Source: an uncultured Deferribacteres bacterium | GTDB taxonomy: Bacteria; Zhuqueibacterota; Zhuqueibacteria; Zhuqueibacterales; Geothermadaptataceae | NCBI GenBank assembly: GCA_964014485.1 | Contig: CAXHAT010000136.1 | Location: forward strand, 1 to 22,206 | Direction: 5' to 3' | Length of the DNA: 22,206 nucleotides | Shown here: positions 12,001-22,206 of the stretch, piece after piece | Layout of the letters: every line of letters begins with the position of its first letter | How positions within the stretch are numbered: position 1 is the first letter of the stretch | Position numbers: made by a program

Positions 12001-15000
12001 GAACGGCTCGGCGGCGTAACGGTCGGCGCCTTGCTCTCCCTGCAAAATCGGATTGAGCTTCTGAAACAAGCGCATCGCATCTTCGGCGCGGCCCAGCTTG
12101 GCAAAGGCCAGGGGCGCCCATGTTGCCGCATGCGTATAAACGCCGCCGTTTTCTCGCAACGACGGCGCGTAGCGCGTGATGTAGCCGATTCCCGCGTCCG
12201 GCTTGCTGAAGCCCGGCTGGAAAAGCATGGCGCCATTGTCGCCTTCCAAATGCTCAAGAACCGCTTCGGCGATTTGAGCGCGCCGTTCGCCCTCAGCCAC
12301 GCCAGAAATAATGGCCCAGGTTTGCGAATTGAGGTAAATCTTGCATTCTTCCTGGGAAGGATCGCCGATGGGCGCACCGTCGTCTTTGGTGGCGCCGAGA
12401 TACCATTGGCCGTTCCAGCCGTGAGTGTTGAGCGCGTCCTTCAGGGCAGCGGCGCGTTTGCGGTATTCCGCCGCCAACGCGGGCTTAGGAATAGGCGAGT
12501 ATTCGCTCAAAACTCGCACCCATTGCCTCAGAATTTCATACAAAAACATGCCGAGCCAAATACTTTCGCCGCGCCACTCCAGGCCGACAGCGCTGAATCC
12601 GTCGCACCAGTCGCCGGCGCCGATGAGCGGCAGGCCGCGCTCGCTAAAACGCCCAAGCGCCGTTTCAATGGCGCGCGTGCAATGTACTTGCAGGAAGTCC
12701 TCGCCTTCGTCGTAAAAAGGGATGCGCTCCTGAAGCGCGGAAAAATCGCCCGTCTCATTAAAGTACTGCGTCAACATGTACGGCAGCCAAAGCAGATCGT
12801 CCGTCATCTCCGTGGGCAGACCTTGATCGGTGAGCGGATGCCACCAATGCAGCACCTTGCCGCTGGAAAATTGATGGCGTGCGTTTAGCTTAACGTGATC
12901 CAGCATCCGATCCGGCTCCAAAAAGAGCCAAACCTGGCTGGTCTGCAATTGGTCGCGAAAACCGTACGCGCCGGACTGCTGGTAGTAGCCCGTCCTTCCC
13001 CACAAATGCCCGGAAACCGCCTGATATTTCAGCCAGACATTATTGAGCAAATCAAAGGATTTCTCCGGCGTTTCGAGCACGACTCGACTGGTCAACTCGC
13101 ACCAAAAATCTTTGACGCGCTGCAATTCATTTCGCGCGGCGCTTTCATCGCTAAAGCGTTCAACGAGATGTGCCGCGCTCTCGTCAGGTTTGTTTTTATC
13201 GATTTGGCCGAGAAGGAAAACCACGGTTTTCTCCTCGCCGGGCGCGAGCGTGACGTTCGTCGCCAACGAAGCGGCGGGGTCTTCAAATCGGCCGCTTTTA
13301 CCGCTAAACGCGCCTTCAGCAATTCCTTTTGGCCGGTGAAAACCGCCGTGACGACCAATGAGCGCGTCCTTGCTTGCGTCCCAGCCCGCGAGTTCCGCAT
13401 TGACGGCGTGAAAGCCGAGATACGGCCATTCCGTGTTCCAATGTCCGCGATCCGTCGGGACTTCCCAAAGCAGTTTTTCCGCGGTAATGGCGCGCAGTTT
13501 TGGGTCAAATTTTGTTTCGATAAAAAGTTTATGAAATTCACGATGCACGTCCGGGGCGGCGCCGAGATTCCATTCAAGATAGGAGCTGAGTTGCAATCGG
13601 CGGGCGGCGGCGCCTTTGTTTCGCAAGGTGCAAAGCCAGATTTCCACGGGATCATCTTTCGCGGCAAACAAAGTCCATTCGCTTTCGATATCGCCGTATT
13701 TTTGCACGAAAGTCGTGTAGCCGAGACCGTGATGGACGCGGTATTCATCAAACGCCGCTTGCATAGGTTGGAACGCCAGTGAACGCAGCACTCCGGAATC
13801 GAGATCGCGCAGATAGAGCCACTTGCCCCAATCGTCACGGATCAGGTCTTGATTCCAGCGCGTCAGGCGGTTGAGCGACGCGTGTGTGCGCCAGCTAAAT
13901 CCGCCGCCGGCCTGGCTGACAACGAGGCCAAAATCGCCGTTTGAAATAACATTCACCCAGGGACGCGGCGTATCGGGCCGGGTGACAACATACTCGAAAC
14001 CGTCGTCGGAAAAACAGCCGTATTTACTCTTGAAGTCAGGCACGATTTGAACTCTGTTTGATTTGTTGTTCTTGTGTAATTATCAGTGCAAACGTGAAAA
14101 CTTATGGTCAGAGAAAATACGTTTTTTGGCAGCCTCCGCGATTAAAATCTAACAGGAGCGCACAGCCCAGAATAGCTTGTGTTTCGTTCCGAGAGCAATG
14201 TCATTGAGCTCAGCGTATTTCTTGTTTTTTGGGCAAGACCTTTCAAACGCAGAGACGCTGAGAAGTGCAGAGAAAATTGAATTGTGAGTTCATTTTGAAC
14301 AGTTCGCGGCGATGAAAATTCGAAAATAGAGTTTCAGGCATTTGTGTTAAAAAAACTCTGCGAAACTCTCCGATCTTTGCGTCTCTGCGTTAAGTCACGA
14401 GATTAAATGACTGTTCCTGATTGGTTCCGGCTTGTCGGGTTTGGGCTTACCCAGAAGCGGCGTATTTCTGTCGCCCTTTCAGGGTTTTCCAATGCGGTCG
14501 TGTGCTGACATTTACTAGGGCGTTGCCCTTCGCTATTACTTTCCGCCCCTTCAGGGCCTAAATCAAACCGAGCTAACACAGAACTTTTTCTCTATCGTTG
14601 GCCTTCACTCCAAATTCAAAATCGTACGCCGAGGGTAAATCTCTGCGAATTGTCCAACCGTCCGTGATCCGACCAGGCGTAGTCGATGCGCAGAGACAAA
14701 TCGCCGTAAGAATAATCTAACCCGGCGCCCAGCGTCAACCCGACCTCGGAATCTTGCAGAAAAAGATTTTGATAGCCGCCGCGCAAAAACAGAAAATCGG
14801 CGACGCTCCATTCCGCGCCAAAACTCACGCTCTCGGTGTTGTCGTTCGGGTGAAAAGCGTCGACCGCGATGTTGACGCGATTGTTCTCGCCAAGCCGGAG
14901 CGGCCAGTACATCCCGACGCGAAACATCACAGGCAGGGAGTATTGCAGCGTATGAACCTCGCCCGGCAAACTGCTGTTGTCGCCGTAGCGATCCGGATCG

Positions 15001-21000: not shown

Positions 21001-22206
21001 GCTCGGCGTGAAAATTTTTTGCTCGAAATCGGCGCGGTCAGTCGGGAGAAAGCGCCGCGTTGCGTAAACGTAGCCGTCATCGACAAATCGGCGGCCGTTG
21101 AGAATGAAGCTTGTTTTCGGCAAAAGAGCCGGGCCGCTCAGACTGAACTGGTAATTCTGTCGCGACAACGGTTTGAATTCGTCATCGACGGGGCGTTTGG
21201 CGTTGGAAAAAACAAAATCGCTGATAAACGCCTCCGCGTTCCACTGAAAGCGATCCGTGCCGCTCTTGAGCACGGCATTGACAACGCCGCTCATCGCCTG
21301 ACCGTACTCTGCGTCGAAAGTGCCGCTGATAACCTGAACTTCACGCAACAGCGAACGGTCGATTCGCAGGGTCGAACTGTTGTCGTAAGAATTGTTCACG
21401 GTCACGCCATTGATCTGGAACTGCACCTCGCCCAGCCTGCCGCCGCGAAAATGGCCGTCCACCACGCCCGCCTGCAAGTTGACGATGTCCTGCAATTCCT
21501 GCACGGGCAAAGCTTCGATTTCTTCTTCCGTGACGGTCGCTAGCGAGCTGGTCAGCATCGTTTCAACGACGGGGGATTCCGCGAAAATCGTCACGGCGGC
21601 GCCTTCGATAACGCTTTCTTCCATCGTCACGTTCTGCGTCGTGGTCTGGTCAGTTTTGATGAGAACGTTTTCGACGACAATCGTGGAGTAGCCGAGAAAA
21701 GTATAGCGCACGCTATAAACGCCGGGGGGAATGTTGATGATGTTGTAATATCCCTGCGCGTCGGAAGCGGAGCCGCGCTCCGTGCCCACGATGACGATGT
21801 TGGCGCCGGGGAGCGGCTCGTTGTTCGCGTCCAAAACCCGCCCGGAAAGCTTCCCGGTCGTTCCGGCGAACGTCTGCGCCGCCAATGTCGCGATTAGAAA
21901 AAACGCGAGCAGGAAAGATTTTGGAGATGTGATGGAATCAGATCGTAACCTTCTAATATTGCTGAACATGTGTGGCCTCCATGATCAAGCTCAGAATATG
22001 GATAACCGAGGTGCTGGCGGGACTTGCTCAAAACGTAAAATGCACTCATACAAGTCGATGTTTTTTCTGGATTCTCGCTTTCTCGCGGAACGGACGAAAG
22101 CATCGCGACGCTTCAGCAATTTTCCTTGCATCATTTATTAGACAATATCCGCAAATTCTCCGAAAACAAAGAAAATTTCAAGACAAAATAATGGCAGTCA
22201 AAATTA

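Follow-up and report, generated by a model that had tools for sequence, protein, structure and literature searches.

The window, 22,206 nucleotides of contig CAXHAT010000136.1 (assembly GCA_964014485.1) from an uncultured Deferribacteres bacterium, carries a gene triad that encodes a TonB-dependent transporter, a large middle protein of an unnamed family and an outer-membrane barrel of the PorV/PorQ family. The triad looks like an apparently undescribed counterpart of SusC/SusD of Bacteroides; no description of it was found in the literature searched. We hold, with modest confidence, that it is a SusC/SusD-like outer-membrane capture-and-import module of a β-1,2-glucan utilization operon, whose design would serve, with other specificities, about ten further loci of the genome.

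SusC/SusD accounts for glycan uptake in Bacteroidia. In sediments, soils, sludge and the sea, much polymer is broken down by the many uncultured relatives of Bacteroidia, and the question addressed here is how these take up glycans without SusD-type lipoproteins. The triad provides a testable answer, in which a protein of sugar-binding type would be exported by type IX secretion, the T9SS, and would sit next to the transporter on a PorQ-like barrel of its own. If, in addition, the three proteins form a stable complex, a second and independent surface-partner solution for TonB transporters exists in the FCB group outside Bacteroidia. The T9SS would then be core to nutrient import, beyond enzyme export, in Ignavibacteria, Calditrichia, Eisenbacteria, Fibrobacteres, Marinimicrobia and Rhodothermales. 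The proposed module would also widen the roles of PorV/PorQ-family barrels, thousands of ‘hypothetical’ genes would gain a handle for annotation, and glycan loci could be predicted in genomes where SusD-based finders of polysaccharide utilization loci (PULs) fail.

Organization of the operon

The triad occupies positions 14616–21969 in the gene order that the first-pass annotation had stated, with all three genes on the minus strand. The transporter gene (19303–21969, 888 aa) is followed by the middle gene (15644–18901, 1085 aa) and the barrel gene (14616–15638, 340 aa), which starts 5–20 nt past the stop of the middle gene. Beyond the barrel, a GH94 gene (11641–14043, minus strand; PF17167 and PF06165) and two GH144-type genes (9605–11083 and 7767–9485, minus strand) are found, and then a terminator-like site. 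This is a hairpin at 7693–7713 of the minus strand; of its 9 stem pairs 6 are GC, and a T8 tail follows. It is the strongest such site of the region and probably the end of the transcription unit. Taken together, sites of this kind are no more frequent here than expected by chance (19 found versus 25 expected). The 401-nt gap between the transporter and middle genes (18902–19302) is filled by a dispersed palindromic repeat with nested inverted repeats inside. A blastn search against the own genome gives 49 matches on 27 contigs for it and 0 for coding controls. The median size of the corresponding gap in related loci is −4 nt, with 2 of 50 longer than 100 nt, and the repeat is not part of the machine.

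The GH94 protein matches PF06165 and PF17167, as expected of a GH94 phosphorylase with supersandwich and catalytic domain. It matches PDB 8rf9 with 509.7 bits versus 395.6 bits for cellobiose phosphorylase, and the substrate is putatively assigned from sequence. PF10091 is found on both GH144-type genes (235 and 254 bits), and homology places them in GH144, the family of endo-β-1,2-glucanases. The product of 9605–11083 matches PDB 8xul (E 9e-108) and the endo-β-1,2-glucanase 5gzh (E 6e-44). In the second enzyme (7767–9485), PF10091 is joined by a T9SS tail of the ordinary type A (PF18962, TIGR04183), and this enzyme is predicted to be surface-bound or secreted. A PUL in the strict sense consists of adjacent susC and susD with CAZymes, and there is no SusC/SusD in the window. 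The locus is PUL-like only, with CAZymes here and a regulator in orthologous loci.

The TonB-dependent transporter

Behind a signal-peptide-like N-terminus, the transporter is composed of a CarboxypepD_reg domain (PF13620, residues 41–117), a plug (PF07715, residues 140–229) and a TonB_dep_Rec barrel (PF00593, residues 346–836) of the 22-strand type. This order of domains is that of Oar. The SusC/RagA model TIGR04056 reaches 65.6 bits versus its cut-off of 368.25, and it matches residues 40–180 only, a stretch that includes the N-terminal CarboxypepD_reg extension common to SusC transporters. There are 13–14 strong paralogues in the genome. The 13 Oar-like transporters counted before compare with 14 strong paralogues in our search, which used a different method. 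PF25183 (OMP_b-brl_4) is found on two of the paralogues, those of contigs C166 and C82, and is absent from the transporter of the window.

Fold of the middle protein

The middle protein matches 0 Pfam families, and its sole NCBIfam match is the C-terminus of PorZ (E 8e-4). A type I signal peptide forms its N-terminus, and no conserved lipobox Cys is shared among the aligned N-termini of its paralogues. Together with the missing Pfam match and the mostly β fold, this sets the protein apart from SusD/RagB. Its relatives number 3526 cluster representatives at E ≤ 1e-3; at E ≤ 1e-30 there are 565. The AF2 model of the whole protein, built from a 65-row alignment, has a pLDDT of 87.3 and a pTM of 0.80, and the N-terminal domain alone reaches 90.3 and 0.90. 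The caveat of the first-pass annotation that residues 18–530 are poorly modelled is thereby overturned.

Residues 30–548 (17258–18814, minus strand) are predicted to form a galactose-mutarotase-like β-supersandwich of the ‘glycoside hydrolase-type carbohydrate-binding’ kind, the type found in GH15, GH94 and GH65 enzymes. About 250 of 525 residues are aligned to the sugar-binding N-domains of GH15 and GH94 enzymes. In the VIA comparison the match to 9ju0 has a Z of 20.0 (rmsd 3.0, 252 residues aligned), followed by the N-domain of 1lf6 (Z 19.7) and the N-domain of the GH94 enzyme 8rf9 (Z 18.5), and Foldseek concurs with this assignment. The supersandwich holds large insertions, acidic DxDxDG-like loops among them, and D310, D312 and D314 (domain numbering) are invariant. 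No catalytic (α/α)6 domain is observed after it in the model. The fold also occurs in some enzyme families, with GH174 and mutarotases among the structure matches, and the supersandwich alone does not give the function of the middle protein.

The following part, residues 552–975 (15977–17248, minus strand), consists of an Fn3-like domain and then further β-sandwich domains, as judged from secondary structure, pLDDT and Foldseek, whose best matches are Fn3/Ig arrays and PorZ. Conservation within the family is highest in the Fn3-like domain (residues 552–700), and W572, F589, G652, D659, Y668 and Y670 are invariant in this region.

The variant tail and its barrel

Residues 983–1085 (15647–15955, minus strand) probably form a variant of the T9SS C-terminal domain (CTD), judged from alignment, HMM and structure match. 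The alignment of 12 tails shows PNPY, an insertion of 12–16 residues with GRGERR, then EH, and the end GKFAIIK. The PNPY…K-terminal pattern aligns with ordinary tails, and the type A models PF18962 and TIGR04183 give no match at E ≤ 0.01. An HMM built from 11 tails of this genome matches 180 ORFs. It scores 97–124 bits on its own members (61.5–106 in leave-one-out), 72.7 bits on one further ORF of contig C24, and at most 44.6 bits on the remaining 168, which have ordinary tails. The distinct tail subclass that had been proposed is borne out by the separation between the leave-one-out scores and those of the other ORFs. It may in part be the product of common descent, judging from sequence: when the tails are removed, weak similarity persists among most middle proteins. 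The protein of contig C32 carries the variant tail on a body without BLAST match to the other 11. Among the solved structures listed, the best match of the tail is the PorZ CTD (5m11_A; Z 12.4, rmsd 2.0, 87 residues aligned, 30% identity). ‘PorZ-like’ is not a specific label, because the tail of the PorZ model matches many ordinary tails with similar scores.

The barrel, of the 14-strand type, belongs to the PorV/PorQ family with 184.9 bits on NF033709 over residues 31–340 (cut-off 90). It stays below the equivalog cut-offs of PorV (NF033710, 78.6 versus 250), PorQ (NF033711, 74 versus 220) and PorV2 (50 versus 325). The nine complete triad-linked barrels scanned score 185–248 bits on NF033709, and the barrel of contig C1, which is cut by the contig end, scores 85.8 bits, under the cut-off. 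A weak PorP match (28 bits) is found on one paralogous barrel only, and several give weak Toluene_X/FadL matches in Pfam. An earlier count of 21 PorV-like genes compares with 15 credible ones of 18 phmmer matches in our search, again by a different method.

In the complex model the tail is placed on the barrel with ipSAE values of 0.91, 0.91 and 0.90, while the best of three controls gives 0.00. The contact agreement between runs is at least 88%, and the partner pLDDT is at least 74. In the calibration of the tool, 116 of 157 solved complexes attain the mark applied, as do 2 of 215 mismatched pairs; the counts are only approximate here because our own alignments were used for the complex. On the barrel side the modelled interface is formed by the nearly invariant R120, T121, V122, I164 and W165, and on the tail side by PNPY, GLYIY and the last strand. 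The tail-specific insertion (about residues 995–1016) is modelled with low confidence outside the confident interface. The model supports the contact between tail and barrel that the first-pass annotation had assumed. The pass may be due to likeness to solved complexes of PorV/PorQ with tails, and it is no proof of a preference for the neighbouring barrel over the canonical PorV.

Other triads and related loci

Eleven triad places are present in the genome, in agreement with the earlier count. The strict order transporter–middle–barrel is observed on contigs C136 (the window), C20, C110, C37, C64, C32 and C1. Two ORFs are inserted on C52; the order on C166 is transporter, barrel, M55 peptidase, middle protein; C105 has transporter, barrel and an NHL protein without a middle protein of the family; and contig C82 ends after the middle protein. 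The neighbours of the C110 triad are sulfatases, GH16, a KDG kinase, a KDPG aldolase and GntR. Two Chondroitinase_B-type lyases with T9SS tails, presumably PL6, adjoin the triad of C37, a CBM20/48 T9SS protein that of C20 and a ROK regulator that of C1. Peptidases instead of CAZymes adjoin the C82 and C166 triads and a lone middle gene on C250, so the cargo class may be wider than glycans. Across eight triads the divergence of the three components is correlated (Mantel rho 0.51–0.69, p 0.0004–0.009), which is explicable by block duplication alone. The T9SS itself is present, with PorU (825 bits), SprA_N (150 bits), a PorZ-like gene and, on contig C78, a canonical PorV-like gene (248.6 bits on NF033710). 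The genome also has six true SusC genes (479–595 bits) and two weak SusD matches, so a missing SusD did not make the triad necessary as a replacement.

In other genomes at least 591 loci were confirmed from one peptide pattern, and gene neighbourhoods were inspected for 80 related loci, which come from several lineages of the FCB group. Of the 63 loci with room, 61 have a transporter directly upstream of the middle gene, and in the two misses it is present as split or over-extended ORFs. The barrel gene follows downstream in all but one of 64 loci (63 of 64); in the remaining locus, L094, the genes are ordered differently. A three-gene unit of the outer membrane that is conserved among FCB-group bacteria is supported, and it occurs mainly outside Bacteroidia. 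Most of the 80 are orthologues of a single triad (50–72% identity), so this conservation is that of one locus type. GH94 or GH144 genes occur within the flanks of 56 of 65 loci; their position around the triad varies, a looser linkage than the triad's own order. A LacI regulator is encoded in all three of L036, L040 and L042, an ABC sugar-importer set also in L042, and a T9SS-tailed gene in L040 and L042. L040, from a metagenome-assembled genome of Ignavibacterium album, has the order GH94, transporter, middle protein, barrel, GH144, GH35, GH144.

Proposed mechanism and alternatives

The middle protein would cross the inner membrane by Sec and then be exported by the T9SS of the genome via its variant CTD. 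The tail is predicted to bypass the general PorV/PorU pathway and to stay on the extracellular face of the adjacent barrel, as PorZ does on PorQ, so that the protein would be anchored without lipid. In GH15, GH94 and GH65 enzymes sugar chains are held by a supersandwich, and from fold and context that of the middle protein would bind glucan or the oligosaccharides freed by the T9SS-tailed GH144. Family and context suggest that these oligosaccharides would pass into the periplasm through the TonB-dependent transporter, where the other GH144 enzyme and the GH94 phosphorylase would complete the breakdown. By analogy, middle protein and barrel would functionally stand in place of SusD and the surface glycan-binding lipoproteins of Bacteroidia. 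The SusC/SusD analogue, one of two alternatives offered by the first-pass annotation, is supported by GH94 and GH144 in the operon, by LacI and the ABC sugar importer in orthologous loci, and by paralogous triads in glycan-degrading clusters. The middle protein may be a lid on the transporter or lie beside it, and neither is favoured. A stable three-protein complex, in which a never-cleaved, barrel-anchored T9SS protein serves as substrate-capturing lid, the barrel docks on the transporter and the tail is a private address away from PorV/PorU, is possible but on the doubtful side.

The most probable of the alternatives, though itself unlikely, is that the three genes are co-regulated and form no machine: a glycan-binding or glycan-processing protein would be displayed by the T9SS on its own barrel and act away from the transporter, with adjacency reflecting co-expression only. 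The tail–barrel model needs no transporter, the barrel and middle genes of C166 are separated and reordered, C105 keeps a transporter–barrel pair without the middle family, and some supersandwich families are catalytic. Against this stand the strict gene order with overlapping or near-zero gaps across several phyla, a linkage within the triad that is tighter than that to the enzymes, and the joint divergence of the three components. We consider it quite unlikely that the barrel is a transient shuttle, an export specificity factor that ferries the cargo from translocon to sortase, where the tail would be cleaved and the protein released or anchored to lipid or LPS. PorU is present in the genome, a shuttle role has been described for PorV, and for barrels of the PorP/SprF type a role as transport factors of particular cargo; however, in the same account a cognate PorV-like barrel is hypothesized to shield the tail from cleavage, with PorZ on PorQ as a possible case, and the uncleaved tail of PorU stays on PorV (PMC10202324, in excerpt). 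That the middle-protein tail falls short of the ordinary type A models may also speak against the shuttle.

The Oar-type export gate, the other alternative of the first-pass annotation, is disfavoured and in our view very improbable. Here the transporter would secrete the middle protein or another substrate; the domain architecture, ordered as in Oar, is what speaks for it, and the likeness to Myxococcus Oar lies in this shared order alone. Export of PopC by Oar in Myxococcus is a precedent (PMC6434023). Yet the middle protein has its own T9SS signal in a genome with a T9SS, the loci encode catabolism under sugar regulation, with GH94, GH144, LacI, an ABC importer, sulfatases and lyases, and SusC transporters have the N-terminal extension equally. 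Least probable of all is a barrel that has nothing to do with the tail and serves as a FadL-like channel through which a small or hydrophobic product passes. The weak Toluene_X/FadL matches of several paralogous barrels are set against the assignment of the nine complete triad-linked barrels scanned to the PorV/PorQ family, their fixed pairing with a special tail and the predicted complex.

Comparison with known systems

The SusC/SusD (RagA/RagB) pairs and utilisomes resemble the triad in that a CarboxypepD_reg-containing TonB transporter is encoded beside a surface-exposed partner, within a substrate-regulated glycan-degrading cluster, and in that the pair is multiplied in the genome with different enzyme sets. 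In contrast, the transporter of the triad lies outside the SusC family, and its partner is an all-β, non-lipoprotein protein of 1085 aa with a T9SS tail, whereas SusD is a helical TPR lipoprotein. The obligatory third gene for a PorV/PorQ-family barrel and the occurrence mainly outside Bacteroidia are further differences.

In PorZ–PorQ and PorU–PorV of Porphyromonas gingivalis a surface protein keeps its CTD and is held by a PorV/PorQ-family barrel, and in SprB–SprF of Flavobacterium a type B CTD cargo is adjoined by a cargo-specific PorP/SprF barrel (PMC10202324). The novelty claimed in the first-pass annotation is narrowed accordingly, since the principle of a cargo that has a PorV-like barrel to itself is already known. 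Unlike the P. gingivalis pairs, the barrel of the triad lies under the PorV and PorQ equivalog cut-offs, its cargo is without β-propellers, and the barrel and cargo genes accompany a TonB transporter gene in catabolic loci, with many copies in a genome. SprB–SprF differs from the triad in barrel family and tail class and has no transporter.

For non-SusC TonB transporters of Bacteroides, Price, Deutschbauer and Arkin predicted that non-SusD neighbours bind the transporter as lids (bioRxiv 10.1101/2023.03.17.533168, in part). These partners are lipoproteins that serve small substrates and hardly occur outside Bacteroidota, and the authors guess that other diderms are unable to export them. In the triad, export and anchoring would instead use the T9SS and the barrel. 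In BamG–BamH of the Bacteroidota BAM, the loops of a 14-strand FadL/PorV-like barrel hold an extracellular protein, which unlike the middle protein is a lipoprotein, and the pair is part of BAM (PMC12578637, in excerpt). None of the triad barrels matches the BamG model, which gives a weak match (56.6 versus 250 bits) on just one further gene, the fourth of the C37 locus.

The SGL cluster IALB_1177–1187 of I. album is an orthologous β-1,2-glucan cluster (Kobayashi et al. 2022, PMC8861115). Its GH35 enzyme, which the available part of that paper treats without mention of the middle protein and barrel, was shown to act on β-1,2-glucooligosaccharides, and import by the TonB transporter is a guess of its authors. 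Culturable carriers of the triad thus appear to exist, in this cluster and perhaps in Rhodothermus marinus (Rmar_1070–1072).

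Organization of the operon

All long ORFs of the window lie on the minus strand. The triad begins with a TonB-dependent transporter of 888 aa (21969-19303), for which Pfam identifies a CarboxypepD_reg extension, a plug and a barrel. It is followed by a middle protein of 1085 aa without a Pfam family (18901-15644) and by a barrel of 340 aa (15638-14616). The latter matches the PorV/PorQ family NF033709 with 184.9 bits (cut-off 90) and falls far short of the curated thresholds of PorV, PorQ and PorV2. The next genes encode a GH94 phosphorylase by family match (14043-11641, 800 aa) and two PF10091 proteins by Pfam, one of 492 aa (11083-9605) and one of 572 aa (9485-7767), the second with an ordinary T9SS type A tail (NCBIfam). 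Among enzymes of solved structure, the first PF10091 protein matches members of GH144 (8xul, E 9e-108), including the endo-beta-1,2-glucanase 5gzh (E 6e-44). Beta-1,2-glucan is the probable substrate of the locus.

The strongest terminator-like hairpin of the region is found 3' of the second PF10091 gene (7713-7693, minus strand). It is the sole standout of a terminator scan that as a class is not above shuffled sequence (19 sites versus 25 in shuffles), and the same holds for the promoter scan (10 sites versus 7.6). Rfam gives no match over the whole window. Of the sequencing runs listed, three DNA runs of a single study contain this sequence, and no RNA run does. The head of the operon is missing because the contig stops 237 nt upstream of the transporter. 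Three minus-strand genes lie downstream of the terminator (189-3011, 3487-4113 and 4187-7534). They encode a ThuA and HEAT-repeat protein of 1115 aa, a STAND-type NTPase of 940 aa that carries TPR and weakly matches AAA_16, NACHT and NB-ARC, and a class III nucleotidyl cyclase domain standing alone (208 aa).

Three intergenic gaps of the operon are unusually long (18902-19302, 14044-14615 and 11084-11640), and the orthologous loci are without them. They are filled by dispersed multi-copy palindromic elements built as nested inverted repeats, MITE/REP-like in character. Within the same genome (blastn, E≤1e-5) the gaps find 49 matches in 27 other contigs, 58 in 45 and 140 in 100, respectively, while two coding controls find 0 under the same search. 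The best copy lies at C79:20066-20355 (91% over 290 nt), and another adjoins the triad on contig C110. An ORF of 105 aa inside the third gap (11264-11581, minus strand) is probably spurious and not a gene. Neither Pfam nor NCBIfam assigns it a family, and none of the 80 related loci contains a relative.

Conservation in related genomes

Among cluster representatives at 50% identity, 3526 are related to the middle protein (565 at E≤1e-30), and one conserved peptide pattern finds at least 591 encoding loci in species-representative genomes. The best 80 of these carry the MAG labels Ignavibacteria, Calditrichia, Eisenbacteria, Krumholzibacteriia, KSB1, Rhodothermales, Fibrobacteraceae, Neomarinimicrobiota, Cloacimonetes, Kryptonium and 'Bacteroidota'. 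Identity to the window protein is 50-72% in 64 of the 80 (L016-L079) and 35-42% in the other 16. One locus type is well covered by this set, the wider family less fully.

Gene order in the 80 loci was scored by fixed rules, counting only loci with room. A transporter lies directly upstream of the middle gene in 61 of 63 loci; the two misses (L047, L055) also carry it, in ORFs that are split or over-extended. Immediately downstream of the middle gene, 63 of 64 loci have the barrel, and the exception, L094, has the order middle-middle-transporter-barrel. The median gaps are -4 nt between transporter and middle gene and 5 nt between middle gene and barrel. GH94 or GH144 genes are found in the flanks of 56 of 65 loci. 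A LacI regulator is present in all three of L036, L040 and L042, the last also with an ABC sugar importer set. Directly 5' of the transporter, 29 of 44 loci with room encode a T9SS-tailed protein of about 640 aa (for example L042 5249-7156 and L040 5297-7246), with a weak CBM9 match in one locus. The copy of this genome is not visible because the contig ends before that position.

Triads across the genome

The three window proteins were searched by phmmer against all ORFs of the 8.4-Mb genome, and the layout of the hits was listed. The eleven triad places of the first-pass annotation are recovered in this way. Strict order is observed at seven (C136, the contig of the window, and contigs C20, C110, C37, C64, C32 and C1), and four are variant or cut (C52, C166, C105 and C82).

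On C37, C110, C20 and others the same design is reused beside other enzyme sets. The C110 triad neighbours two sulfatases, a GH16 enzyme, a KDG-kinase-like PfkB, a KDPG aldolase, an aldehyde dehydrogenase and a GntR regulator; the C37 triad, two Chondroitinase_B-type lyases and two further T9SS-tailed proteins; the C20 triad, a CBM20/CBM48 T9SS protein. A ROK regulator is found on C1, FG-GAP/ASPIC proteins on C64 and C32, and peptidases (DUF4910, M55, S9) on C82, C166 and C250. Because the neighbours vary so much, the module would be a general uptake front end, and its cargo may be wider than glycans.

Two of the triads contain additional genes. On C52 (L002, 4996-7069) a toxin gene of the TumE family (125 aa) and an ORF of 346 aa without a family are inserted between transporter and middle gene. 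On C37 (L007, 15157-16668) a fourth gene of 504 aa follows the barrel. Its BamG match (56.6 bits, cut-off 250) and its FadL-like matches are weak, and its product may be another barrel of this module.

Fold of the middle protein

Searching the PDB with the middle protein sequence gives chance antibody matches only (E 0.015 and worse). In the ESM Atlas no common Pfam family is found in any of the 30 nearest clusters, and the cluster names among the matches listed include 'hypothetical protein' and 'Lipoprotein, putative family protein'. A model of the entire protein, built on an alignment of 65 rows from diverse relatives, reaches pLDDT 87.3 and pTM 0.80, and residues 24-548 modelled alone reach pLDDT 90.3 and pTM 0.90. 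Foldseek on the whole 1085-aa model returns generic Fn3/Ig arrays at very low TM; it became informative only after VIA-align and the separate domain model.

In a structural search of the 24-548 model against representative structures, the best matches are all N-terminal supersandwich domains: dextran dextrinase (9ju0, Z 20.0, rmsd 3.0 over 252 aligned), a bacterial glucoamylase (1lf6, Z 19.7, rmsd 2.8 over 232 aligned), glucodextranase (1ulv, Z 19.0) and the GH94 domain of a cyclic glucan synthase (8rf9, Z 18.5). GH65, GH116 and GH149 enzymes and galactose mutarotases come next, and Foldseek agrees with the supersandwich matches. About half of the 525 residues of this domain are insertions, including acidic DxDxDG-type loops with invariant aspartates. 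The supersandwich is followed by an Fn3-like domain (552-700), the best conserved of the family, by further beta-sandwiches and by the tail. An (alpha/alpha)6 catalytic domain after the supersandwich is absent from the model. We infer that the supersandwich binds sugar.

The tail and its barrel

The first-pass annotation had described the tails of the middle proteins as a subclass of their own, and our analysis supports this. A profile HMM built from the eleven tails gives its own members 97-124 bits, or 61.5-106 bits when each is left out in turn, against 44.6 bits or less on the remaining 168 of 180 ORFs matched in the genome. One extra protein on contig C24 (L015, 9491-11728, 746 aa) reaches 72.7 bits; neither a transporter nor a PorV-like gene adjoins it, and the neighbouring protein has a Lamin-tail domain and ends in an ordinary T9SS tail. 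Aligned with ordinary tails, the triad tails show an insertion of 12-16 residues, GRGERR-like, after the PNPY strand, and a conserved EH. The subclass could also reflect common descent, a caveat raised with the original claim. It holds in part: most middle proteins without their tails are still weakly similar through the Fn3-like region, so descent explains some of the signal. The body of the C32 protein has no match to the other eleven at E≤1e-3, and yet its tail scores 61.5 bits in the leave-one-out test.

The solved match listed for the tail is the C-terminal domain of PorZ (Z 12.4, rmsd 2.0, 87 residues, 30% identity). We rejected 'PorZ-like tail' as a specific label and do not call the tail PorZ-type, because the last 80 positions of the PorZ model match dozens of ordinary tails of the genome about equally well (22-28 bits, versus 20-38 on triad tails).

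The machinery for T9SS export is present in the genome, which encodes PorU (825 bits, contig C135), SprA (C104), a diverged PorZ-like protein (C172) and a canonical PorV-like protein (C78, 248.6 bits on the PorV model). The PorV/PorQ family model matches all 12 PorV-like genes that were scanned, and 11 exceed its cut-off, the contig-cut C1 copy staying below at 85.8 bits; C78 alone nears an equivalog cut-off. At this C78 locus (L013, 5156-9477) the PorV-like gene is paired with a 'T9SS-dependent M6-like inactivated metalloprotease' (NF052323, 621.9 bits) and not with PorU, which lies on C135. In an alignment of the 13 in-genome barrels, no loop clearly sets the triad barrels apart, except that the long insertion of canonical PorV is absent.

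The complex of barrel 26-340 (57-row alignment from related loci) with tail 972-1085 was modelled. The ipSAE values are 0.91, 0.91 and 0.90, versus 0.00 for the best of three controls, although the model may recall solved PorV/PorQ complexes. At least 88% of the contacts are common to the runs, with partner pLDDT of at least 74. When the method was calibrated, 116 of 157 solved complexes attained the mark, as did 2 of 215 mismatched pairs; these counts are only roughly valid here since custom alignments were used. In the confident interface, the nearly invariant barrel residues R120-V122, I164 and W165 contact the tail at its PNPY, GLYIY and last strands, and the subclass-specific insertion lies outside it. 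The model suggests that the tail binds the barrel.

Proposed role of the triad

We interpret the triad as a module of a transporter and a surface partner, in which the anchoring pair would be of the PorQ type. The middle protein would be exported by the T9SS, would retain its tail in the mature form, and would hand over sugar to the transporter. The first-pass annotation had proposed either a SusC/SusD analogue or an Oar-type export gate. The domain order alone favours an Oar/PopC gate, which conflicts with the T9SS tail of the middle protein and with the catabolic, sugar-regulated context, and we regard it as unlikely. In a weaker form of the preferred reading, which is quite possible, the middle protein would be anchored and act as an enzyme or a binding protein without ever contacting the transporter. 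The mirror-tree correlation among the triad components is real, but it is not counted as evidence of contact because block duplication explains it. The barrel, for its part, might be only a transient, cargo-specific shuttle.

Functionally, the nearest parallel to a module of transporter and anchored surface partner is SusC/SusD with surface glycan-binding lipoproteins. For the anchoring, the nearest in mechanism is PorZ on PorQ, as outlined in a review (PMC10202324), and BamG holding BamH is another such barrel gripping an outside protein (PMC12578637). Non-SusD lipoprotein lids are described in Bacteroides by Price et al., who guess that other diderms are unable to export such lipoproteins (bioRxiv 10.1101/2023.03.17.533168). 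The triad would serve the same purpose without a lipid. It is not a stop-gap for SusD-less organisms, as the same genome also encodes six genuine SusC proteins and gives two weak matches to SusD.

Searches of a collection of open-access PMC and bioRxiv papers returned no description of the triad, and the consulted parts of the Caldithrix abyssi genome paper and of an activated-sludge secretome paper are silent on it. Two papers, in the portions consulted, touch triad members without recognizing them. In the orthologous cluster of Ignavibacterium album, a GH35 enzyme was shown to transfer glucose from beta-1,2-glucooligosaccharides, and the authors speculate that the TonB-dependent transporter imports these; the sections consulted contain no mention of the two genes after the transporter (PMC8861115). 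Locus L040, from an I. album MAG, shows the corresponding set of GH94, transporter, middle protein, barrel, GH144, GH35 and GH144 genes. The second is a xylan-locus table of Rhodothermus marinus (Rmar_1070-1073; PMC6987092), which lists a TonB-dependent receptor (Rmar_1070), a hypothetical protein with a Por tail (Rmar_1071) and a hypothetical protein (Rmar_1072). By annotation alone Rmar_1070-1072 show the triad pattern and may represent a triad in an organism amenable to genetics.
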